DNA from: a virus
IMG/VR virus record: IMGVR_UViG_3300043036_000143
Strand: one strand, 5' to 3'
Length of the DNA stretch: 38,123 nt
How positions within the stretch are numbered: position 1 is the stretch's first letter; every line of letters starts with the position of its first letter. Shown piece by piece: positions 1 through 8,758 of this stretch. The position numbers and the translations under genes were made by a program. The notes under the pieces are model-generated. The model was not told the DNA's origin. It did no database searches and saw only the letters and a program-made list of their open reading frames with translations.

Positions 1-64
1 ATGAAGAGTTGATATATTTGCCTCCACCTTGTCCTTGTAAATCGTAGCTAATAGGGCTGCTCAT
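1..64 (-). other. Duplicated N-terminal fragment (21 codons) of CDS 37806..38060, created by the terminal overlap
   Basis: CAT at 62..64 corresponds to the ATG at 38058..38060. It is not an independent gene. Confidence 0.9.
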
Positions 65-70
65 GCGCGT

Positions 71-98
71 GTTTTATCATTTTGTGAGGATTTGTCAA
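71..98 (-). promoter_or_regulatory. Candidate sigma70-type promoter of the structural operon (also present at 38067..38094)
   Basis: The minus strand reads TTGACA (98..93), a 16-nt spacer, then TGaTAAAAC (extended -10, hexamer 76..71). The ATG of the first structural gene lies 7 nt after the -10 hexamer. Confidence 0.45.
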
Positions 99-221
99 GT
101 AGCCATTTAGGCATTTTTTCGGAGGGTGGGGAACCAATAGCTATACCCGCAGCCACCGCGCCCGCGACCCCCTCCCCCCCTGTTCACCCGCACACTACTC
201 ACCCGCACACCCAGCAAATCA

Positions 222-357
222 AACGCTTGTATCAATCGCCCGCTTGAATCACTCGCTTGAATCACTCGCTGGCATAGTCGAAACGTCCACCTGAAACGCC
301 CGTATGAATCACTCGCTTGATCGATCCAGTAACGTCAATAAAACACTCGCTTGAATA
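222..357. repeat. Iteron-like array of (CA)CTCGCTTGAAT motifs
   Basis: CGCTTGAAT occurs at 241-249, 254-262 and 348-356, with variants at 224-232 (CGCTTGTAT) and 314-321 (CGCTTGAT). The 16-mer TGAATCACTCGCTTGA occurs at 245-260 and 305-320. A 13-bp tandem period spans 241-270. Confidence 0.8.
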
Positions 358-417
358 GCTGGCACGCCGTCCATGCATCGCAGAAGCACAGAGCGGAATC
401 TGGCGGAAATTTTTTGC

Positions 418-447
418 TTGACATGTTTTGGGAAAGCTGTGTAGAAT
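418..447 (+). promoter_or_regulatory. Candidate sigma70-type early promoter P1
   Basis: TTGACA (418-423), an 18-nt spacer, then TAGAAT (442-447), with an A/T-rich tract upstream (ggaaatttttt). It shares the context TGTAGAA(T/A)TC with the promoter at 8544. Confidence 0.6.
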
Positions 448-560
448 CAGTACACCAAGGAATGGATGATAATGCACTGATGACATCCGTTACTTGCTTG
501 CGATTGCTTCGCGCGTGTGTTGATGATATTCTTTCAAGTGGGTGAATAGGTTTCTGAGAC

Positions 561-598
561 TCTCTCTCTTGCTCTCTCTCTCTTGCTCTCTCTCTTGC
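561..598. repeat. Tandem (TC)n-TTGC polypyrimidine repeat, 3 units
   Basis: TCTCTCTCTTGC, TCTCTCTCTCTTGC and TCTCTCTCTTGC sit inside a roughly 100-nt C/T-rich tract (556..650). Confidence 0.9.
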
Positions 599-669
599 TT
601 GATTGCCTCGACCATTGCCTCTCTCGCCTTGCTTTGCTCTCTTGTGGGTTACTTTGGAGGTAAAATACT

Positions 670-687
670 CTAACAAAATGCACGCTG
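670..687 (+). promoter_or_regulatory. Conserved 18-nt box CTAACAAAATGCACGCTG (copy 1)
   Basis: It matches 8470..8487 (CTAACAAAATACACGCTG) at 17 of 18 positions. Both copies lie in the noncoding leaders of the two rightward early operons and are followed by A-rich sequence. Confidence 0.4.
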
Positions 688-806
688 TAACCCTTGAAGA
701 ATAAGGGAAAATAAAAATAAATGAAATATTTATTAAAATGTTGTGGACAATGCCGCAAGATTTGTTAATTTCTTCCCGCCGCGCCGAACACAGCGGCACA
801 CACAAC

Positions 807-995
807 ATGAACATGACAGCAACCACACATAGCGAGACGCTCACTAACATGCTTAATTTTGCACGCTCCCACGACTGGGGGAAAAATGCACTCATACCCT
901 ACGCATCCTCCGCGCTGCACATCTACGACGAGTATGCAGACGAGATCGTAAAATTTACAGACATGCTCGCCCTTAGGACTTGGGCTGGTTATTAA
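807..995 (+). CDS. Hypothetical early protein
   Basis: ORF track 738..995. The ATG at 807 directly follows the CA-rich leader cacacacaac. The start is ambiguous (738 or 807). Confidence 0.45.
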   Translation: MNMTATTHSETLTNMLNFARSHDWGKNALIPYASSALHIYDEYADEIVKFTDMLALRTWAGY

Positions 996-1043
996 TCATC
1001 ACAACACAACACAACACACCATAACTTGAATATACTCTTGAAC

Positions 1044-1787
1044 ATGAAAACTACCACTGTAAAAACACAAGCAAGAAATGAAAAGCGCGATCTACTCACA
1101 AGTGAGAATGCAAAGACAAGCAAGGGAGAAAACCTAGGCTTTCTCACTGGCATTCTCTACCTTGCGCCCGCCAATGAGAGCGGAAAAAACACCTGCCCTT
1201 TTGCGTCGACTGGTTGCGCTGCCGCTTGTCTATTTACGGCTGGGCGCGGGGCATTCGATAGCGTGCGGGAAGCGAGACTAGCTAAGACGTATTACCTATG
1301 GCAAGGCGTGAGTCACTTTGTGGACAATCTCGAGTTTAATATCCATGCCCTAGAACGGAAAGCTAAGCGTGAGGGATTAACTCCATGCGTGAGACTAAAT
1401 GGTACAAGTGACTTACCATGGGAAACAATGAAAGGAAACAAGAAAAAATCGATCATCGCGCTTTTCCCTCACGTGCAGTTTTATGATTATACTAAAAATC
1501 CATCACGCATGAAAAAATACCTACGCGGAGAGATGCCCGCCAATTACCACCTTACATTTTCACGTTCGGAATGTAATCATGAAACATGTCTTGAGATTCT
1601 CGAGATGGGCGGGAATGTTGCCGCCGTATTTGAAAAGATGCCGGAAATATGGTGTGGAAAAGAAGTAATTTCCGGGGATGATCACGATTTAAGATTTTTA
1701 GACAAAACTGGAGTAGTGGTAGGATTAAAAGCTAAGGGAAAAGCTAAAAAAGATCTCTCCGGTTTCGTGGTATCAGCCAATGATTAA
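1044..1787 (+). CDS. GP88-family-like protein with N-terminal Cys cluster (function unknown)
   Basis: The track ORF 1026..1787 starts at TTG. The first ATG (1044) follows the (ACAAC)n leader at 998-1025. Motifs TSKGENLGFLTGILYLAP, CPFASTGCAAAC, NGTSDLPWE and GDDHDLRFLD were recalled from memory as Pfam GP88-like. Confidence 0.7.
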   Translation: MKTTTVKTQARNEKRDLLTSENAKTSKGENLGFLTGILYLAPANESGKNTCPFASTGCAAACLFTAGRGAFDSVREARLAKTYYLWQGVSHFVDNLEFNIHALERKAKREGLTPCVRLNGTSDLPWETMKGNKKKSIIALFPHVQFYDYTKNPSRMKKYLRGEMPANYHLTFSRSECNHETCLEILEMGGNVAAVFEKMPEIWCGKEVISGDDHDLRFLDKTGVVVGLKAKGKAKKDLSGFVVSAND

Positions 1788-1800
1788 ATTATAAAAATTA

Positions 1801-1850
1801 GCCACTGAAGAGCCTCCAGGCATGAGGCGAAACGCCGCAAGGCGTATGGC
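1801..1850 (+). ncRNA. Type I hammerhead ribozyme HHR-1 (predicted cleavage between 1846 and 1847)
   Basis: Sequence parses as GCCA / CUGAAGA / GCCUC-CAGGCAU-GAGGC / GAA / ACGCC-GCAA-GGCGU / A / UGGC. The full invariant core is present, with 5-bp stem II, 5-bp stem III capped by a GNRA loop, and an open stem I. Confidence 0.9.
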
Positions 1851-1867
1851 AATGCCAATAGAACAAT

Positions 1868-2077
1868 ATGAACACAATCACTACTCAAAAAGCAATTCGC
1901 GCCCAATTTTGGGCATCTCACCCAGATCTTGAAGCTCACGCGCTTATGTGGAGCATCAAGACAGCTCCGCAAAATAGACACAACACAGACACGCGCACGG
2001 CGTTTTGTGACTATGTCGATTCCCTTGCCAAGTCTGGCATGATCTCCGAAAAACTAGCGTCACGCGCTACCTTGTAA
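1868..2077 (+). CDS. Hypothetical protein
   Basis: 69-aa ORF. Its ATG lies 21 nt downstream of the HHR-1 cleavage site. Confidence 0.65.
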   Translation: MNTITTQKAIRAQFWASHPDLEAHALMWSIKTAPQNRHNTDTRTAFCDYVDSLAKSGMISEKLASRATL

Positions 2078-2104
2078 AACAATACAACACAACACACAGA
2101 CAAA

Positions 2105-2356
2105 ATGAAAACTACTATTACAAAATCAGCAGCCATCAAACACGCTCGCCAAAACGTATCCTCACTGTCAATCTTTGGGGGGCAATACAGATTCGCAACC
2201 TACGACGCGAAAATGAACGCATGGTGGGAGCATGTCCCGAAACAATTCCATGCTGCCGCTTTCGACCGCTCGCAGGCACTTATTGATGCCGCCCGTGACT
2301 ATCTCGATTTGCCATGCGTGCAATATGACGGCGGCGCATGGATCGACTATGTTTAA
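2105..2356 (+). CDS. Hypothetical protein
   Basis: 83-aa ORF. The ATG is preceded by the CA-repeat leader acaacacaacacacagacaaa. Confidence 0.7.
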   Translation: MKTTITKSAAIKHARQNVSSLSIFGGQYRFATYDAKMNAWWEHVPKQFHAAAFDRSQALIDAARDYLDLPCVQYDGGAWIDYV

Positions 2357-2393
2357 ACCACACTACCACAGAAACCGTACACAGCATAAAACT

Positions 2394-2588
2394 ATGATCA
2401 CAGGAAACATGCAAATTTCAAACACAGAAAGCTTTCTTCATTCATGCAAACTTGCCATCTCGCATGAATTTAAAACGCGCCATTACAAGGCAATCGGGCT
2501 TTACACTCCAACAGAAAACGTGCGCGATGCAATCGCCATCATTCGCAGAATTCAGCCTAAAAACATCACCAAGCAATCCAAACCATGA
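2394..2588 (+). CDS. Hypothetical protein
   Basis: This is the distal part of track ORF 2232..2588. The ATG at 2394 is the first start downstream of the preceding gene, and the stop overlaps the next ATG (ATGA). Confidence 0.5.
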   Translation: MITGNMQISNTESFLHSCKLAISHEFKTRHYKAIGLYTPTENVRDAIAIIRRIQPKNITKQSKP

Positions 2589-2731
2589 ATACACCAACTT
2601 GCTCACTCGTCCGCCGTCCCATCCGCCGCAATCCATGGCGGAAATGGATCACCACCACCGCTGAAATCATCGGGGGAGTCCTCACGATTGCTCTACTTGT
2701 AACACTCACCCTCCTGTCCTTAGCACTATGA
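2585..2731 (+). CDS. Small membrane protein (48 aa)
   Basis: Hand translation gives MNTPTCSLVRRPIRRNPWRKWITTTAEIIGGVLTIALLVTLTLLSLAL, a basic N-terminus plus one hydrophobic helix. It has ATGA overlaps at both ends and is below the track length cutoff. Confidence 0.5.
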   Translation: MNTPTCSLVRRPIRRNPWRKWITTTAEIIGGVLTIALLVTLTLLSLAL

Positions 2732-2901
2732 CCACATTCACAGCACTATCCCAGCGCATCCGCGCCGCCGTATCCACTGCCGATCTCAAAGCTTTAGAAA
2801 AGCGATGTGATAGGCACTATGAGGCAGGCACTATCACACCGAGCGAGTTTTCCCGCTTAGATGGAATGATCATGGAACGCATCGCATTACTGAACCAATA
2901 A
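2728..2901 (+). CDS. Hypothetical protein (57 aa)
   Basis: Hand translation gives MTTFTALSQRIRAAVSTADLKALEKRCDRHYEAGTITPSEFSRLDGMIMERIALLNQ. It is ATGA-coupled to the upstream ORF. Confidence 0.5.
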   Translation: MTTFTALSQRIRAAVSTADLKALEKRCDRHYEAGTITPSEFSRLDGMIMERIALLNQ

Positions 2902-2926
2902 AACACAACACAACACAAATAAGGCT

Positions 2927-3244
2927 ATGATAACAATAACACAGAAAGATTACACAATCCTGCAGAAAATCGCCGAAAAAATTAATTCTGAAATCAAAGC
3001 TTACAATGAGGCTCATGATGTCGTCCACCAAGTCATTTCCGTCAGCGTAAGCCAGGACGATGATTTCATCGATCATTATGCGTATTTTGACATCGAAACA
3101 TTCAAAACCCACAGCTCGGATGAAGAATCATACGTCCATGATGCCATACGAGGCATTGCCAGACAACTTACCGATGCACTTATCACTGACACGATCGTAA
3201 GCTCTGGAGATGGGATCTTCACGGCGGTCTATAAGCTCATATAA
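2927..3244 (+). CDS. Hypothetical protein
   Basis: 105-aa ORF following the CA-repeat leader aaacacaacacaacacaaataagg. Confidence 0.7.
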   Translation: MITITQKDYTILQKIAEKINSEIKAYNEAHDVVHQVISVSVSQDDDFIDHYAYFDIETFKTHSSDEESYVHDAIRGIARQLTDALITDTIVSSGDGIFTAVYKLI

Positions 3245-3262
3245 CCCACTATCACGGAAGCC

Positions 3263-3445
3263 ATGAATGAAATCATAATTGACGAGCTTTATATCGCTCT
3301 CAGCGTATTAGAGCAACGAGAAATTGACCTCGCCATGCTAGGCAGGGTAGAGCATAGAAACGCCGTGAGACTGGCAATGCTGCCGATCAAACGAGAAATC
3401 AACAAGCTTGAGAATAGAGAAATTTACCCTGAAACAAGCCACTGA
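3263..3445 (+). CDS. Hypothetical protein; stop codon lies inside the HHR-2 core
   Basis: 60-aa ORF ending ...ETSH-TGA. The TGA at 3443-3445 is U4-G5-A6 of the ribozyme. Confidence 0.6.
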   Translation: MNEIIIDELYIALSVLEQREIDLAMLGRVEHRNAVRLAMLPIKREINKLENREIYPETSH

Positions 3446-3485
3446 TGAGCCTCCAGGCATGAGGCGAAACCCTGCGGGGTCTGGC
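3438..3485 (+). ncRNA. Type I hammerhead ribozyme HHR-2 (predicted cleavage between 3481 and 3482)
   Basis: Sequence parses as GCCA / CUGAUGA / GCCUC-CAGGCAU-GAGGC / GAA / ACCC-UGCG-GGGU / C / UGGC. It has the canonical GUC cleavage triplet and a UNCG-type loop on stem III. Confidence 0.92.
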
Positions 3486-3519
3486 AAGAGCCAAATAACA
3501 CAACACAACACAAGACAAG

Positions 3520-3795
3520 ATGCAAACGATAACAGGCAATACATACCCCGTAAAAGAAGCCATAAAGGCACTAGGCGGAAAATGGAACAAACTAGCCAAG
3601 GGCTGGGATGTTCCCGACGAGGTAGCAGATGAAGCGCGCGCCTTAGTCTCAGGCTCGCCAAGCCGTAGCATTAGCCACAGCTATGATAAAACCACATTTT
3701 ACCGCATGAACAGCGGAGCGGTGATTTACCGCAACAGATCTGGTATGTGTGAAGATGCGCCATGCTGCGGCTGCTGCGGCACAGATAGCCACTGA
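3520..3795 (+). CDS. DUF5710-like N-terminal domain protein with Cys-rich C-terminus; stop codon lies inside the HHR-3 core
   Basis: GNTYPVKEAIKALGGKWNKLAKGWDVP resembles, from memory, the N-terminal module seen on phage replication proteins. The C-terminus is CEDAPCCGCCGTDSH. The TGA at 3793-3795 is U4-G5-A6 of HHR-3. Confidence 0.7.
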   Translation: MQTITGNTYPVKEAIKALGGKWNKLAKGWDVPDEVADEARALVSGSPSRSISHSYDKTTFYRMNSGAVIYRNRSGMCEDAPCCGCCGTDSH

Positions 3796-3838
3796 TGAGA
3801 TCCAGGCAAAGATCGAAACGCCCTGCGGGGTGTATGGC
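3788..3838 (+). ncRNA. Type I hammerhead ribozyme HHR-3 (predicted cleavage between 3834 and 3835)
   Basis: Sequence parses as GCCA / CUGAUGA / GAUC-CAGGCAAA-GAUC / GAA / ACGCCC-UGCG-GGGUGU / A / UGGC. The core is intact, and stems II and III differ from HHR-1 and HHR-2 by compensatory changes. Confidence 0.9.
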
Positions 3839-3857
3839 ACAAGCCAACTCAAAATAT

Positions 3858-4100
3858 ATGATACTATACCAGAAAACAGAAGACCCCCTTGTAATTGTAA
3901 CAGATTCCAAAACGAAAGACGTTGAGACTAAAAAACTCACTGGCACTTATTTTCGGATCATTCCCCCCGCAAATGATCGCGTGAATTGGGTGTTAACTTG
4001 CTCAGAAATGCACGTTGACCGATGGGCAAGCGCAACAGATTCCACCATGATCATTTCCGAGAATCTAAGAAAACAACTTGTCTCTTTATTCTCATGCTGA
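3858..4100 (+). CDS. Hypothetical protein
   Basis: The upstream part of track ORF 3795..4100 runs through HHR-3, and the ATG at 3834 spans the cleavage site. The first ATG after cleavage is 3858 (MILYQKTEDPL...). Confidence 0.6.
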   Translation: MILYQKTEDPLVIVTDSKTKDVETKKLTGTYFRIIPPANDRVNWVLTCSEMHVDRWASATDSTMIISENLRKQLVSLFSC

Positions 4101-4411
4101 TCGACAACAAAATCGCGCTGATACAATCCGTTGCTGATGTCCTCGGGGTGAAACCTGAAGCTATCACTGGCAAGCGCAAACGGTTCGCTGAGGCTCTCGC
4201 CAGGCAAATCGTGATGACGTTGTGGAGTGAAGCACACTCGCTCCAGGACTCAGCCGAAATCGTAAACCGAACCCATCACACCGCAGCATTTTACGCACGT
4301 AAAAAGACTTATGAACGCTTGCACTATTGTAAGAAGTCAAAAGAGCGAATGCATAAGATACTGCAAAGATACTCAGAAATTATTCTTGAACAAACCGAAA
4401 CAAACCACTAA
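4094..4411 (+). CDS. DnaA domain-IV-like (Bac_DnaA_C-like) DNA-binding protein
   Basis: IALIQSVADVLGVKPEAITGKRKRFAEALARQIVMTLWSEAHSLQDSAEIVNRTHHTAAFYARKK follows the DnaA C-terminal HTH pattern (GK-R...AR...M......S...I......HT.V..A..K). Confidence 0.65.
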   Translation: MLIDNKIALIQSVADVLGVKPEAITGKRKRFAEALARQIVMTLWSEAHSLQDSAEIVNRTHHTAAFYARKKTYERLHYCKKSKERMHKILQRYSEIILEQTETNH

Positions 4412-4459
4412 AAAAACTCTTGTGCGGGAAATTCCGCACTATCACAACACCAAAATACA

Positions 4460-5038
4460 ATGCAATTAGAACACAGCACACCTGAATTGTTTACTGCCCT
4501 AGCAAAAATGCAGGGAGAAGTAGAAAACGCCACAAAAGGCTCGCTAAATCCACATTTCAAATCGAAATATGCGGATCTTGCGGAAGTCTTGAACACCGTG
4601 CGCCCAGTATTGGCAGCAAATGGACTATCAATCATACAGTCGCCCTCATTTGACGGTGCTATTTGCCACGTTACCACCACAATCGCCCACAGCGGTGGAG
4701 GGTATATCTTCGGCACTATGTCCTGTGTCCCTGCGAAAATGGACGGGCAGGGCGTAGGAGCGGCAACAACCTACCTTCGACGCTATTCGCTCGCCGCAGT
4801 CTGTGGAGTTGCCCAGGAGGACGATGACGGACAATCGGCAGCGCATAATCGCCCCGCAGTCTATCCGCTCATTTCCAGTGGTGAAGCTGCCAGAATTCGC
4901 GAAAACATCGAAGCTCTTGCTATCGACGAACCAGCATTCCTGAAACATTACGGAGTTACGGCAGTCGCACAGCTAACCACTGACAAAATCGCCAGCATCG
5001 ATAAAGCATTTGCAATCAAAGCTAAAGCAAAACCATGA
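4460..5038 (+). CDS. erf: ERF-family single-strand annealing protein
   Basis: ALAKMQGEVENATKGSLNPHFKSKYADLAEVLNTVRPVLAANGLS and TTYLRRYSLAAVCGV are typical ERF motifs. The gene is ATGA-coupled to the exonuclease gene. Confidence 0.85.
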   Translation: MQLEHSTPELFTALAKMQGEVENATKGSLNPHFKSKYADLAEVLNTVRPVLAANGLSIIQSPSFDGAICHVTTTIAHSGGGYIFGTMSCVPAKMDGQGVGAATTYLRRYSLAAVCGVAQEDDDGQSAAHNRPAVYPLISSGEAARIRENIEALAIDEPAFLKHYGVTAVAQLTTDKIASIDKAFAIKAKAKP

Positions 5039-5841
5039 AAAACGCAACTATTGAATACAACTTGGGCAGAGCGTATTACTCACGTTCCGCATCGCCGACG
5101 AACCTGTCAGCACCTGTCAGCAAATCACTATTATGGGATTTCAACCAATCACCCTACAAATGGCGACACAGCACAGGCAAAGAGTCGACCCGCGCGATGG
5201 ATTTAGGAACGCTGATTCATGCCGCGATCCTAGAACCAAACATTCCGCTTGATGTAATCGCAGCAGTATCGCCATTCTCCGACTTTCGCACTAAAGCCGC
5301 GCAGGAGTGGAGAGACGATGCACGAGCAATGGGCAAGATGATTGCCACAGATGCCGACATTCGCGTTGCTGGAGGGTGTGAAGCGGTCTTTTCCGAAGAC
5401 TATGTGCAACGCTTTGCAGGTAGCTATAAATCCGAGGTGGCAGTTTTTGCCACTATCGGGGCAACTGAGATTAAAGGCATGATTGATCTCGTGCCTGACA
5501 ATCTTGATTTGCTGGTAGACCTCAAAACTACCGCGAAAATCGGGAGTCTTCGGAACATTACCAACACTATCATCGACCGAGGTTATCACTGGCAAGCTGC
5601 GTTATATCTCGATCTGTGGAACGCTGCCACAGAAGAGAAACGCAAACGCTTTGTGATATGCTTTATCGAGGTGGATGCACCGCATGAGTCGGCATGGGTG
5701 GAAGTCTCACCCGAACTGATTGAGGCAGGGCGCATCGGTTACATGAACGCACTTGCGAAATGGCAAGCGTGCTGTGCTACGGACACATGGCCGCGCCAGC
5801 ATGAGGGGATTACCACTATCGAGAAACCCGCATACCTATAA
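5035..5841 (+). CDS. PD-(D/E)xK (RecB/Cas4-like) recombination exonuclease
   Basis: Motifs DLGTLIHAAILEP, GMIDLV, DLKTT (D/ExK) and YHWQAALY (QxxxY) are present. It sits immediately downstream of erf. Confidence 0.75.
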   Translation: MKNATIEYNLGRAYYSRSASPTNLSAPVSKSLLWDFNQSPYKWRHSTGKESTRAMDLGTLIHAAILEPNIPLDVIAAVSPFSDFRTKAAQEWRDDARAMGKMIATDADIRVAGGCEAVFSEDYVQRFAGSYKSEVAVFATIGATEIKGMIDLVPDNLDLLVDLKTTAKIGSLRNITNTIIDRGYHWQAALYLDLWNAATEEKRKRFVICFIEVDAPHESAWVEVSPELIEAGRIGYMNALAKWQACCATDTWPRQHEGITTIEKPAYL

Positions 5842-5855
5842 ACCAAAAAGAGGGG

Positions 5856-5884
5856 GCGCGCATCTCATTCACGCGCTTTATATT
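5856..5884 (+). terminator. Weak hairpin plus T-rich tail (possible attenuator)
   Basis: GCGCG (5856-60) pairs with CGCGC (5872-76) across an 11-nt loop, followed by TTTATATT. Confidence 0.25.
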
Positions 5885-6112
5885 ATGAAGAAAAAATATG
5901 ATGCAGTCGCCACCGTGGGCAAATACACGAAGGACGGAATAGAGAAAAAGCGTTATTTGACCGTAGGAGCGGTCTTTGAGAGCGATGAGGGCAAACTTAC
6001 CCTAAAGCTGGAAGGAGTGCCTGTATCGCCCGATTGGAGCGGTTGGATCGCATTCTACGAGCCAAAGCTAGGTTACACTGGAACAACTGAGAACGACACA
6101 CCGCCATTCTGA
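5885..6112 (+). CDS. Small (75 aa) OB-like protein ending in an SSB-type tip (...ENDTPPF)
   Basis: ATG at 5885 within track ORF 5753..6112. The beta-rich sequence MKKKYDAVATVGKYTKDGIEKKRYLTVGAVFESDEGKLTLKLEGVP ends in an acidic/aromatic C-terminus, DTPPF. Confidence 0.6.
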   Translation: MKKKYDAVATVGKYTKDGIEKKRYLTVGAVFESDEGKLTLKLEGVPVSPDWSGWIAFYEPKLGYTGTTENDTPPF

Positions 6113-6369
6113 TGAGCATATTCGACGACACGCCGCTGGAGATCGGCACGCAATACTACGATAAGGAAATCATCGGGTGGAATCCTGACGAGAGAAAGTA
6201 TCTAGTCGCTTGCCCACGCTTTCGCATGAAGGAGCTTTGGCTCTCCAAGGAGAAGGTGGATGCTGAATATGGGAATAGTCTCATGGCAGGAGTTGAATGT
6301 CGTGAGTCGAAGCCAGGAAGCAGCTACAACACCCGATACTTCAGAAGTCGGGCAGATAGCCCAGAATGA
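6112..6369 (+). CDS. Hypothetical protein
   Basis: 85-aa ORF with a TGATG overlap onto the upstream gene. Confidence 0.65.
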   Translation: MSIFDDTPLEIGTQYYDKEIIGWNPDERKYLVACPRFRMKELWLSKEKVDAEYGNSLMAGVECRESKPGSSYNTRYFRSRADSPE

Positions 6370-6397
6370 AAAATATCCTTGCCACCTCCATCCAATC

Positions 6398-6610
6398 ATG
6401 CAAACTAACCATATGAAAACGCTAACGTATTCACCCGAAGAGGCAGAGAGAAACGGCTACAAGTCGATTACTACGCTTTACTTCTTCAACGATGAAGCGG
6501 ATATGAAATACCTCTCTGCTGTGTTGGCTGATATGGCAAATGTTAAACATTGCCTGATAAAAACGCTCCGAGGAGTGGAGGTGGCGAGGCTTAAGACCGA
6601 GATCCTATGA
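6398..6610 (+). CDS. Hypothetical protein
   Basis: Distal part of track ORF 6260..6610. ATG at 6398 (alternative 6413) lies after the preceding stop, and an ATGA overlap links it to the next gene. Confidence 0.55.
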   Translation: MQTNHMKTLTYSPEEAERNGYKSITTLYFFNDEADMKYLSAVLADMANVKHCLIKTLRGVEVARLKTEIL

Positions 6611-6810
6611 ACTTATTCCCAGAATTACCAGAAGAGAAATCACCCCGCCTAAAATGGATGAAAGCGAAGAATATCCACACGCTGAAAACCAAGGATGGCA
6701 GATGGGTAGCTTATAAAAGCGAGACACAGCACAATTTCACCCACGAGGATGAGATTGATGCTGTTGTCGGTCTTGCTAAGAAGCTAAAAATCAAACTCTG
6801 GAAAGAGTGA
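6607..6810 (+). CDS. Hypothetical protein
   Basis: 67-aa ORF, ATGA-coupled. Confidence 0.65.
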   Translation: MNLFPELPEEKSPRLKWMKAKNIHTLKTKDGRWVAYKSETQHNFTHEDEIDAVVGLAKKLKIKLWKE

Positions 6811-6838
6811 TTGACTCCGCGCCAGATTGTGTTAGTCT
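6811..6838 (+). promoter_or_regulatory. Possible internal promoter ahead of the 7006 gene
   Basis: TTGACT (6811-16), a 16-nt spacer, then TGtTAGTCT (extended -10). The hexamer is weak. Confidence 0.3.
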
Positions 6839-7005
6839 GCTCCCGACAGTGCTAAGTGCGCGACTCTTGCGAAGCGAACCAGACTTAGCCATTACGCTGA
6901 GGTGAGGCACGGCGCGAAGGACGCCGACATCGAATAGAAACTTTCCCGCAGTCGCCTCTACCGCCTTGTTCGGCTTTGGGGGCGCGGCACAACCAGAACG
7001 AAAAC

Positions 7006-7308
7006 ATGAATGCTAAAAAAGAACTGCTAGACCACATTGGAAACCGCGAAGTGAAATACGTCCGCGTCATCCTCGAACACTCATACGACAACAAGGAGAC
7101 GATTGAGGGCGCGCTTGACGAGGTGCTTCCGAAATTGGGCTTTGACTACGATAACGGCTACGGCGACCAATACATGGAGGGAACCATCTGGTATTCCGAT
7201 GGAACTTGGTCGGATCGCGGGGAGTATGACGGCTCCGAATGGTGGGAACACCGCGAGTGTCCTTCTCTGCCGAACACCCAGTCCATCCACCCCGAATCAA
7301 AGCCCTAA
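7006..7308 (+). CDS. Hypothetical protein (moron-like unit)
   Basis: ATG at 7006 (MNAKKELLDHIG...) within track ORF 6976..7308. It is preceded by a 195-nt spacer and followed by a strong terminator. Confidence 0.7.
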   Translation: MNAKKELLDHIGNREVKYVRVILEHSYDNKETIEGALDEVLPKLGFDYDNGYGDQYMEGTIWYSDGTWSDRGEYDGSEWWEHRECPSLPNTQSIHPESKP

Positions 7309-7336
7309 TATTATGCAAAACGAAAAGCAATCAGGT

Positions 7337-7370
7337 AACCCCGCTAGCACCCACTGGCGGGGTTTTTATT
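7337..7370 (+). terminator. Rho-independent terminator between convergent genes
   Basis: CCCCGC (7339-44) pairs with GCGGGG (7357-62), followed by TTTTTATTCTTTT. The site lies between the stops of 7006..7308 (+) and 7375..7581 (-). Confidence 0.8.
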
Positions 7371-7374
7371 CTTT

Positions 7375-7581
7375 TCATAGGGACAACTCTTTTTCAGCGC
7401 TGGCAATCACATCGTAAAGAGTTTCACCATCAAACTGCATCACGCCGTCAACCTCCCCAAGCATCACTGGTGAATCATTCCCTAGCATGAATCTCCAGGT
7501 GCCATCTTCCCACCGATAAAGGCAAAGCTCCTTATGCCCTGATTTATTTATGATTTCATTCAATCTGCTTTGTAGTGTCAT
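7375..7581 (-). CDS. Hypothetical protein
   Basis: 68-aa ORF, ATGA-coupled to 7578..7892. Confidence 0.65.
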   Translation of the reverse strand: MTLQSRLNEIINKSGHKELCLYRWEDGTWRFMLGNDSPVMLGEVDGVMQFDGETLYDVIASAEKELSL

Positions 7582-7892
7582 TTTGTTTCTTTCGTTGTTT
7601 GGTTGTTTTTAGTGTAATATGGTCGAACTTCTTTCTGCCATCGTCGTAAAAATGAATCCTCACCATCGTCACCACTAACGAGCCAATCGACCCGTTGAGC
7701 CATTTCAGCAGCTTGGCGTAAAGTATGCACTGTTTCTCTGAATTTTTCGATCACTTCAGGCGGGTAATTTCTCCCGCGAGTATCGCCCCATTCATTTTTT
7801 GACTCGTCATTGTTCGATTCAATTAATTCGTGAATATCCTTGGCAATGTCTTCAATTCTATATTGTTGGTATTGGAAATGTCCTCCGCTCAT
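7578..7892 (-). CDS. Hypothetical protein
   Basis: 104-aa ORF. It is the first gene of the short leftward module. Confidence 0.7.
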   Translation of the reverse strand: MSGGHFQYQQYRIEDIAKDIHELIESNNDESKNEWGDTRGRNYPPEVIEKFRETVHTLRQAAEMAQRVDWLVSGDDGEDSFLRRWQKEVRPYYTKNNQTTKETK

Positions 7893-8170
7893 ATCGTTCT
7901 TTCTTTCTTCTTTATTCTGTTCTTTTTATTTCTGTACACAATTAGTCTCATAACCTCCCTAGAGCACACACGATGAGAAACAATATCTACCATGCGCTTT
8001 TATGATCGGAATCAGCCCCTTAGGAGTCAACCTCCTGCCACCTCTGCTTAGTCTCATGGTGACAACACGCTGGCAGCTTTCCCGCTTCCCGTGCCTAGTG
8101 ATGAGTGTGGAAGATTCACGTCTTCTCGCGGTGTCCTTTGTTTTGGTCTGTCTTCAGAATCGAACAGGGG

Positions 8171-8210
8171 CAAATGAAAAGCCCGTTCAGGCTACTACCT
8201 CTGAACGGGC
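8171..8210 (-). terminator. Rho-independent terminator on the minus strand inside the long noncoding region
   Basis: A perfect 10-bp stem GCCCGTTCAG (8181-90) / CTGAACGGGC (8201-10) with a 10-nt loop. On the minus strand it is followed by TTTTCATTTG. Confidence 0.65.
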
Positions 8211-8436
8211 TTCGATGCTATTTGAACACACAGCAAGAAAGTCTTTTACGGCGGTAGTAGCGCACGAACGGGTGAAGAATACCGCAATGAGCGGAAAACG
8301 CAAGGATTATTTTTCAGGGGGTGAAAATATCCCCCAAGGTGCGCATCGTTGAGAGGCGTGAGGGATCTGCTGCCAGAATAGTATCAGAGAATCGGGTAAA
8401 TTCAAGCTTAGATATGGAGCAGGATCGGTATCATCG

Positions 8437-8464
8437 GACGTATGGCAGACGTATGGCAGACGTA
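8437..8464. repeat. 11-bp tandem repeat GACGTATGGCA, 2.6 copies
   Basis: Copies at 8437-8447 and 8448-8458, with a partial copy at 8459-8464. The repeat lies immediately upstream of the 18-nt box. Confidence 0.85.
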
Positions 8465-8581: not shown

Positions 8582-8758
8582 ATGAACGAACACATCGCCA
8601 ACCTCACCGAGGCACAAGCCAAGATCATACTGGAATTCGCCATGCGGGAATGGCGCAACACCATATACACCCGAGATCTATATGGAGACTCCGCACGGCT
8701 TGGATTCCTCACTCAGAAAATCGAAATACTCGCCAAAGAAAATACAACACAACCATGA
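8582..8758 (+). CDS. Hypothetical protein (58 aa)
   Basis: Hand translation gives MNEHIANLTEAQAKIILEFAMREWRNTIYTRDLYGDSARLGFLTQKIEILAKENTTQP. It has an ATGA overlap with the next gene and is below the track cutoff. Confidence 0.55.
   Translation: MNEHIANLTEAQAKIILEFAMREWRNTIYTRDLYGDSARLGFLTQKIEILAKENTTQP

Follow-up and report, generated by a model that had tools for sequence, protein, structure and literature searches.

Three type I hammerhead ribozymes at gene ends in the early region of an uncultivated phage, and their possible role in dividing an early transcript

We analyzed a stretch of viral DNA of 38,123 nucleotides (nt), the IMG/VR record IMGVR_UViG_3300043036_000143 (hereafter the window), in which hammerhead ribozymes (HHRs) stand between the small genes of a phage early region. 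The window encodes a tailed phage of ~38 kb and makes up almost all of a metagenome contig of the Joint Genome Institute (JGI; 3300036945, Ga0377191_000250, 38,436 nt). Its rightward early region holds genes for a GP88-like protein, a DnaA-C-like helix-turn-helix protein, an Erf recombinase, and a PDDEXK exonuclease along with many small open reading frames (ORFs), and its leftward late region encodes an SU10-type major capsid protein, the large terminase, tail proteins, and a CHAP lysin. A DNA similarity search of the window against INPHARED, in near and distant modes, gave no match among the deposited phages; many relatives are found in IMG/VR, and other loci are cited below by L numbers. 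Reading of the sequence, a descriptor scan of both strands, and a covariance model named R1 agreed on exactly three complete type I hammerheads, HHR-1 to HHR-3, all on the + strand and within 2 kb of each other (Table 1). The Rfam models and the R1 scan found no other hammerheads and no other ribozyme classes in the window.

The three copies share a common layout of GCCA / CUGANGA / stem II hairpin / GAAA / stem III hairpin / U-H17 / UGGC, in which stem I is open while the two other stems are capped. Judged by the core criteria of Perreault et al. 2011 (PMC3088659), namely C3 U4 G5 A6 N7 G8 A9, G12 A13 A14, A15.1–U16.1, and an H17 other than G, the catalytic core is canonical in all three, with H17 being A, C, and A in HHR-1, HHR-2, and HHR-3, respectively. 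The stem II of HHR-2 is identical to that of HHR-1 and the core of its stem III matches that of HHR-3, so that HHR-2 looks like a chimera of the other two. An earlier note on this DNA had placed cuts at 3481/3482 and 3834/3835 and described the units of 1,635 and 353 nt that cleavage would release; its hammerhead coordinates and cuts all held, the lengths and ORF content of the units were correct, and the shorter unit does carry a whole ORF that stops in the CUGA box of HHR-3.

Table 1. Predicted ribozymes, processed units, and neighboring features of the early region (aa, amino acids)
Feature	Position	Strand	Details
Candidate early promoter	418-447	+	TTGACA-18-TAGAAT, 11/12 matches; consensus match only; upstream of all three ribozymes
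GP88-family protein gene	1026-1787	+	PF17338, E = 6e-50; phrog_1617; directly upstream of HHR-1
HHR-1, type I hammerhead	1801-1850	+	Predicted cut 1846/1847; R1 78.1 bits; GCCA 1801-1804; CUGAAGA 1805-1811; stem II 1812-1828; GAAA 1829-1832; stem III 1832-1845; A17 1846; UGGC 1847-1850
Predicted processed unit, 1,635 nt	1847-3481	+	From cuts of HHR-1 and HHR-2; seven small ORFs: 1868-2077, 2105-2356, 2394-2588, 2585-2731, 2728-2901, 2927-3244, 3263-3445
HHR-1 3' tail, AAU-GCCA-A	1851-1858	+	Can pair with loop II (GGCAU:AUGCC) or with UGGC 1847-1850
HHR-2, type I hammerhead	3438-3485	+	Predicted cut 3481/3482; R1 77.6 bits; stem I 5' strand GCCA 3438-3441; CUGAUGA 3442-3448; stem II hairpin 3449-3465; GAAA 3466-3469; stem III hairpin 3469-3480; C17 3481; UGGC 3482-3485
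Predicted processed unit, 353 nt	3482-3834	+	5'-OH, hairpin, (ACAAC)n leader, 91-aa ORF, HHR-3 body, 2',3'-cyclic phosphate
HHR-2 3' tail, AAGA-GCCA-A	3486-3494	+	UGGC 3482-3485 can pair with GCCA 3490-3493
ORF, 91 aa	3520-3795	+	Weak DUF5710-like N-terminus; C-terminal CEDAPCCGCCG motif
HHR-3, type I hammerhead	3788-3838	+	Predicted cut 3834/3835; R1 77.7 bits; GCCA 3788-3791; CUGAUGA 3792-3798; stem II 3799-3814; GAAA 3815-3818; stem III 3818-3833; A17 3834; UGGC 3835-3838
HHR-3 3' tail, ACAA-GCCA-A	3839-3847	+	UGGC 3835-3838 can pair with GCCA 3843-3846
First gene of distal mRNA, 80 aa	3858-4100	+	ATG 3858, 24 nt past the cut
Candidate intrinsic terminator	7337-7364	+	11-bp stem, then U tract; consensus match only

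The pattern GCCACTGANGAG-N8-30-CGAAAC occurs 3 times in the window and not once in 100 dinucleotide-preserving shuffles. R1, which we built from 41 of the 55 distinct relatives collected in IMG/VR, gives the three copies scores of ~78 bits, with the next-best match in the 38-kb window at 10.6 bits, and hammerhead orthologues are present in at least 30 related contigs. Pairing and covariation were measured on a model-based alignment of 64 distinct sequences. Stems I and II were each 99.2% paired and showed covariation in 3 of their 4 pairs, while stem III was 94.6% paired with covariation in 4 of 5 pairs. Double-sided compensatory changes were found in 10 of the 13 stem pairs; none of 500 shuffles equaled the observed covariation, and slid registers of the alignment came nowhere near it. 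We infer from the sequence that the three elements are active, cis-cleaving type I hammerheads.

Two relatives carry altered copies. The HHR-3 orthologue at L061:5261-5337 (+) reads CUGAUGA-U...U-GAAAC, with U at 10.1 and 11.1 replacing the G–C pair, and may have been weakened or inactivated. L050 has a truncated hammerhead at 5972-6043 (+; 43.2 bits) on the strand opposite to its other hammerheads, which has lost the CUGAUGA box and kept stem II, GAAA, stem III, UGGC, and the tail. L050 further holds the window region 3787-4416 in both orientations, and its contig therefore has an inverted duplication with an end inside a ribozyme.

The ribozymes are tied closely to the ends of genes. The GP88-like gene, with its stop codon at 1785-1787, ends 13 nt short of HHR-1, and in the two others the CUGA box itself supplies the stop: its UGA (3443-3445 in HHR-2) terminates ORF 3263-3445 and, in HHR-3, ORF 3520-3795. 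Among 62 hammerheads drawn from non-redundant loci of related phages, the upstream ORF stops at the core UGA in 32, and the stop abuts stem I in 10 more. On the other side of the cut, the start codons in the window follow at distances of 21, 38, and 24 nt, and in related loci the next start codon usually lies within 5–40 nt. In HHR-1 (1846-1848) and HHR-3 (3834-3836), where H17 is an A followed by UGG, an AUG straddles the cut. The JGI gene call starts the 80-aa gene at this AUG 3834, which as a real start would be destroyed by cleavage. We rejected it since the frame is lost in L026, a locus with the same downstream gene; the junction AUG of three other hammerheads (L048, L075, and L033) opens an ORF of a mere 2–6 codons. 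The JGI start is probably an annotation artefact, and ATG 3858 is most likely the true start of the gene.

The leaders that follow the cuts consist of CA-rich (ACAAC)n repeats, without clear Shine–Dalgarno sequences. Such repeats stand a few nt upstream of early-gene starts on the + strand at 1001-1020, 2079-2093, 2900-2919, 3495-3514, and 8744-8753, and ACAACACAAC, allowing at most one mismatch, has 15 matches against 2.6 expected. The motif also comes after the hammerhead tail in many relatives. The repeats may be CA-rich translation leaders that replace Shine–Dalgarno sequences.

A BLAST comparison of window positions 1–7500 with the related loci placed edges of homology at 1797-1801, 3430/3438, 3488-3509, and 3787-3807, which are the edges of the ribozymes. 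A cassette made up of a 60-aa gene and HHR-2 including its tail forms a common block with L011, L044, and L050. Because homology with relatives ends at 3494-3509, the tail of HHR-2 can be counted as part of the ribozyme module. Homology breaks at ribozyme edges were seen with L002, L011, L044, L047, L050, and others, a pattern that suggests recombination within or beside the ribozyme repeats. The DNA of the GP88-like gene has no counterpart in any related IMG/VR locus, although both of its flanks have one, and the gene looks like a cassette specific to the phage of the window.

A consensus scan of the + strand placed a strong promoter-like site at 418-447. Past the ribozymes, the first strong terminator-like site comes at 7337-7364, with no terminator-like site between the two, and this layout fits one polycistronic early transcript. 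The reading that we prefer, with a probability of roughly 65%, is that active hammerheads cut the early operon co-transcriptionally into modules with defined ends. Each ribozyme would close a gene module of the rightward operon at its 3' end and, as the polymerase passes, would fold and cut after H17. The upstream product would keep its complete ORF or ORFs and end in the compact, two-hairpin body of the ribozyme with a 2',3'-cyclic phosphate, and the downstream product would start with 5'-OH-UGGC. This UGGC could then swap its partner, the upstream GCCA, for the GCCA copy 3–4 nt downstream, giving a terminal 4-bp hairpin and, after it, an unstructured CA-rich leader with the start codon 21–38 nt from the cut. 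Assuming transcription from 418-447 to 7337-7364, the fragments would measure ~1.4 kb, 1,635 nt, 353 nt, and ~3.5 kb, their ends would be independent of whichever neighboring module recombination had placed there, and stability and translation could be specific to each module. Bacterial 3' exonucleases and poly(A) polymerase require a 3'-OH, and the 2',3'-cyclic phosphate end should for that reason slow 3' decay; RNase E, where its entry depends on a 5'-monophosphate, acts poorly on 5'-OH ends. The earlier note had likewise proposed that the ribozymes punctuate a polycistronic transcript into 1847-3481, 3482-3834, and a distal mRNA. This proposal is supported by canonical, covarying motifs at ORF ends and by the stretch free of terminator-like sites, and equivalent prophage arrays cleave in vitro, the Agrobacterium tumefaciens array also in Escherichia coli (PMC3088659).

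The window hammerheads belong to a distinct phage lineage characterized by a 4-bp stem I (GCCA/UGGC), GGC in loop II, and a tail of the form N3-5-GCCA. Stem I has 4 bp in 41 of the 48 family members and mostly 6 bp in the other phage type I hammerheads that we sampled. Loop II almost always contains GGC, and the 3' flank of the lineage reads UGGC-N3-5-GCCA, usually with one more A next. The tail thus repeats the 5' strand of stem I, and such a copy is present in 41/48 members. Other lineages carry tail copies of different sequence, GUCUAA in L212, L233, and L273, CUGCCA/CUGUCA in L009, and CCGC in L238, L250, and L308; the CCAC tail of L302 is weaker and does not stand out from shuffled tails (p 0.15–0.75). 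At the level of lineages, tail copies were enriched, with 7.6 observed against 3.6 ± 1.7 for permuted tails (p about 0.02).

Two pairings compete for this tail. In the first, the predicted minimum-energy state of all three new 5' ends is a 4-bp hairpin at the terminus, of −3.7 to −5.0 kcal/mol, with an unstructured leader after it: the fold of 1847-1880 is a ((((...)))) hairpin of −3.7 kcal/mol, and the HHR-2 tail hairpin is found in the minimum-energy folds of both 3434-3500 and 3482-3525 (−5.0 kcal/mol, z = −3.3). In the second, the GCC of the tail could pair with the GGC of loop II in a pseudoknot, for which 3–5 Watson–Crick pairs are possible in 46/48 family members and whose core three pairs hardly vary. 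Clear pseudoknot cases are L030 (UGGCGG:CCGCCA), L033, L042, and L298, and in L005 and L042 the pseudoknot is the sole pairing that the tail permits. The hairpin pair U107–A122 is formed in 54 of 63 sequences, compared with 10 of 59 for the pseudoknot alternative, and it explains the conserved A of the tail GCCA. Covariation does not separate the pseudoknot from the hairpin, as the GCC/GGC core is invariant and a few divergent sequences support one pairing alone, some the hairpin and others the pseudoknot. In L231 and L003:2874, each of the two pairings has a partner of its own, suggesting that they may alternate, with the pseudoknot present in the active fold and the hairpin after the cut. 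We tentatively propose, at somewhat less than even odds, that the tail is a built-in strand-swap device in which the 3' strand of stem I re-pairs with the downstream copy of its partner, making cleavage irreversible and capping the new 5' end, as in a natural RiboJ.

RiboJ was reportedly introduced by Lou et al. in 2012 as a synthetic insulator. Like the arrangement predicted here, RiboJ, which joins the sTRSV hammerhead to a 23-nt hairpin, removes the upstream context by cleavage, so that the new 5' end carries a hairpin ahead of the start codon. It differs in being engineered and derived from a type III hammerhead and in having its 23-nt hairpin as a separate element, whereas the hairpin in the window has 4 bp, would arise by a swap of the stem I 3' strand, and is a prediction. 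In E. coli, RiboJ raised mRNA ~2-fold and protein 2- to 10-fold, possibly via the terminal hairpin, and yielded a context-independent 5' untranslated region (PMC6206723). If the tail does form a strand-swap hairpin, the RiboJ design would have arisen independently in nature, and the device would explain how mosaic phages keep shuffled modules expressible whatever their neighbors.

Several observations weigh against a cleaved operon. Promoter-like and terminator-like sites, being consensus matches, are no more numerous in the window than in shuffles. Any effect on stability would depend on the RNase set of the host; RNase J1 degrades the 5'-OH product of glmS in Bacillus. Breaks in homology are found also at ordinary gene borders (for example 2392, 2593, and 2917-2920). 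The tail hairpin competes with stem I and could thereby lower cleavage. The flanking pairs of the pseudoknot covary poorly, 27-122 being paired in 10/59 sequences and 34-116 in 32/55. Stem I has only 4 bp, and the pseudoknot, a candidate for the tertiary contact that fast cleavage at physiological Mg2+ requires, has only 3–5 Watson–Crick pairs; in other hammerheads, stem I/stem II pseudoknots proved necessary for fast cleavage, and they have been estimated to occur in ~40% of hammerheads (Perreault et al. 2011, PMC3088659). Finally, no Rfam hammerhead model reaches its gathering score in the window, the best scores being 18.6–21.5 bits against thresholds of 48.5–56.3. The same models report nothing in L003, L007, and L016, which hold 10 hammerheads passing the descriptor, and for this reason we read the failure as insensitivity of the models to a lineage with a short stem I and not as evidence against the motif.

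The mosaic breakpoints could also be taken to mean that the conserved ~50- to 75-nt repeats serve mainly as crossover sites for the exchange of gene cassettes among related phages, or merely persist as selfish passengers, and that RNA cleavage is incidental with little effect on expression. The pile-up of breakpoints at the four ribozyme edges and the chimeric make-up of HHR-2 speak for such a role, as does the variation from phage to phage of the genes between ribozymes, seen here and in prophages (PMC3088659). A role at the level of DNA, however, leaves unexplained the strict conservation of the catalytic nucleotides, the compensatory changes in three stems, and the consistent strand and placement just 3' of ORFs, and ordinary gene borders serve as breakpoints equally often. 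Because those borders break too, the ribozymes mark module boundaries without being unique hot spots. We consider recombination or selfish persistence an unlikely account of their presence.

Less likely again is that cleavage is partial and tunable. The tail GCCA would then be an anti-ribozyme element that competes with stem I and limits cutting to a kinetic window during transcription, so that polycistronic and processed RNAs would be made in fixed proportions. For HHR-2 and HHR-3 in their contexts, the minimum-energy fold does contain the tail hairpin and lacks stem I, and the tail is retained in most of the family. Thermodynamic folding, however, ignores pseudoknots and the order of events during transcription. 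The same GCC can form a stabilizing pseudoknot with the GGC of loop II, a type of contact that other hammerheads have been shown to require for fast cleavage (PMC3088659), and the two relatives mentioned above permit that pairing alone.

Comparison with other loci shows the 353-nt unit to be nothing special. The 91-aa protein belongs to a large family of small proteins, with >324 homologues that without exception are annotated as hypothetical. Its gene has a unit to itself in just two cases, the window and L048 (349 nt), and is part of multi-gene units of 906–1,838 nt in L019, L034, L047, and L071. In an unrelated sample of 118 IMG/VR loci, 79 held a strict type I hammerhead and 21 of these 79 had at least two on one strand, with a median unit of 534 nt (range 167–2,016) and 16 of 38 units no longer than 500 nt. 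Since the gene belongs to multi-gene units elsewhere and short units are common in the sample, the single-gene unit is an ordinary outcome of ribozyme placement in a mosaic early region. We also considered the 91-aa gene as a "ribozyme-associated gene" and rejected this: its homologues of 55–60% identity (L205–L210) have no adjacent hammerhead or Rfam ribozyme, and the same holds for the relatives sharing the C-terminal motif (L076–L083). Four distant homologue contexts (six loci) were without an adjacent ribozyme, and among the distant loci only L208 has a hammerhead, ~1.3 kb upstream.

The earlier note had further likened the 353-nt unit to the self-processing monomers of viroid-like and retrozyme RNAs and, as a speculation, allowed for circular forms. 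Host RtcB, or the hammerhead reaction run in reverse, would close the doubly cut unit, and perhaps others, into an exonuclease-resistant circular mRNA for the 91-aa protein. The expected 5'-OH and 2',3'-cyclic phosphate ends are substrates of RtcB by established chemistry (PMC8782182). Both ribozymes use the same UGGC, and if 3834 were ligated to 3482, a hammerhead would form again, as the note had said; the unit also folds more stably than its shuffled versions (z = −3.4). A rebuilt hammerhead, however, would re-cut the circle, and the tail hairpin would sequester the 5' UGGC. The unit is not conserved, its gene is not linked to ribozymes in more distant homologues, 276 of its 353 nt (78%) are coding, and its predicted fold is multibranched and not rod-like, with an ensemble frequency of 0.0001. 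The window ORFs that were scanned showed no RtcB domain, and Perreault et al. 2011 considered spliced and circular products and detected none from comparable arrays (PMC3088659). Viroid-like RNAs, retrozymes, and Obelisks do resemble the unit in that two cuts free a monomer of a few hundred nt with the same two types of end, but they are autonomous or retrotransposed, mostly noncoding or equipped with their own replicase-associated ORF, highly self-paired, and conserved as units, in contrast to this arbitrary, nonconserved mRNA segment of a double-stranded DNA phage.

We regard such a circular mRNA as very unlikely. Host RtcB needs no base pairing at the junction and could for that reason still act, and were it to turn doubly cut units, the 353-nt one first, into translatable, exonuclease-resistant circular mRNAs in infected cells, phage hammerhead arrays would be a natural bacterial system for circular-mRNA production; that specific proposal strikes us as highly improbable. 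The junction 3834→3482 would read CCCUGCGGGGUGUA|UGGCAAGAGCCAAAUAAC, also written GGGGUGUA|UGGCAAGAGCC. Its 17-mer GGTGTATGGCAAGAGCC had 89 matches in 241 M metagenome assembly records, by a rough estimate about the number expected by chance, and none of the 80 loci checked held a hammerhead of the lineage. The weakest alternative, chance resemblance or decayed and inactive motifs, could draw on the unreached Rfam gathering score and the very short stem I, but it meets 100 shuffles without even a single match, three copies on one strand within 2 kb, and covarying orthologues in at least 30 related contigs, and the covariation has already effectively refuted it.

The locus is a further example of a phenomenon described for prophages in 2011, and the ideas of punctuation and of circles have both been published. 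Perreault et al. 2011 (PLoS Comput Biol, PMC3088659) found that multiple hammerheads in prophages often flank single genes or short blocks of varying identity, proposed that they process transcripts into operon-length or gene-length mRNAs, and observed in vitro cleavage at all predicted sites of three arrays, one of which (A. tumefaciens) was also cleaved in E. coli. Such arrays were noted again by De la Pena et al. 2017 (PMC6155905) and Weinberg et al. 2019 (PMC6765202), with their role left open and called "elusive." The window resembles the triple arrays of A. tumefaciens, Azorhizobium caulinodans, and Clostridium scindens in that a single strand of its early-type region carries several hammerheads, which flank small hypothetical genes that are not constant between genomes; such arrays are present in related phages too. 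The proposed processing role is the same, and the candidate pseudoknot of the window would correspond to the contacts between stems I and II in those arrays. Unlike those arrays, the window lineage comes from uncultivated phages without a match in INPHARED, and all of its members are type I, with a 4-bp GCCA/UGGC stem I, frequent stop codons in the CUGA box, and a tail that repeats a stem I strand. These features and the coincidence with mosaic boundaries are possibly new details. The window hammerheads share their core and three-stem architecture with Rfam RF03152 (RAGATH-1), RF00163, RF00008, and RF02275-7, and HHR-1 and HHR-2 can be aligned with the RAGATH-1 model along its full length. They differ from RF03152 in having no upstream RAGATH-1 hairpin.

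For the role of phage and bacterial hammerheads, the locus is a small and well-conserved test case, with three near-identical ribozymes within 2 kb, products of easily distinguished size, natural variants in at least 30 related contigs, and two hypotheses on the 3' tail that lend themselves to a direct test. The Rfam hammerhead models miss the lineage, and R1 together with alignment A2 could seed a new model.

Longer arrays are present in other uncultivated IMG/VR phages. L212, L302, L278, L327, and L268 have 4–6 type I hammerheads each at a spacing of 240–1,700 nt, and the stem I sequence, such as GUCUAA/UUAGAC or xCCAC/GUGGx, is uniform within an array and particular to it, as though it had been homogenized in each genome. 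A search for the host with the pattern GCCACTGATGAG..CGAAAC in one genome per species gave at least 120 stretches; of these, 80 loci were searched with R1, without a match. The labels of metagenome-assembled genomes on homologues of the 91-aa protein name Chthoniobacteraceae and Ca. Binatus; these are too distant to serve for assigning a host.

The sole match in the window at an Rfam gathering score is an abiF RNA motif (RF03085) at 8329-8365 (−), which covers the full length of the model and scores 41.8 bits against a threshold of 37. It sits in a leftward-facing stretch separating two blocks of rightward genes, and the ORFs near it, 7578-7892 (−), 7375-7581 (−), and 8002-8352 (+), have no Pfam match. 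Downstream of it in + coordinates, at 8437-8464 (+), lies a tandem direct repeat, GACGTATGGCA GACGTATGGCA GACGTA.

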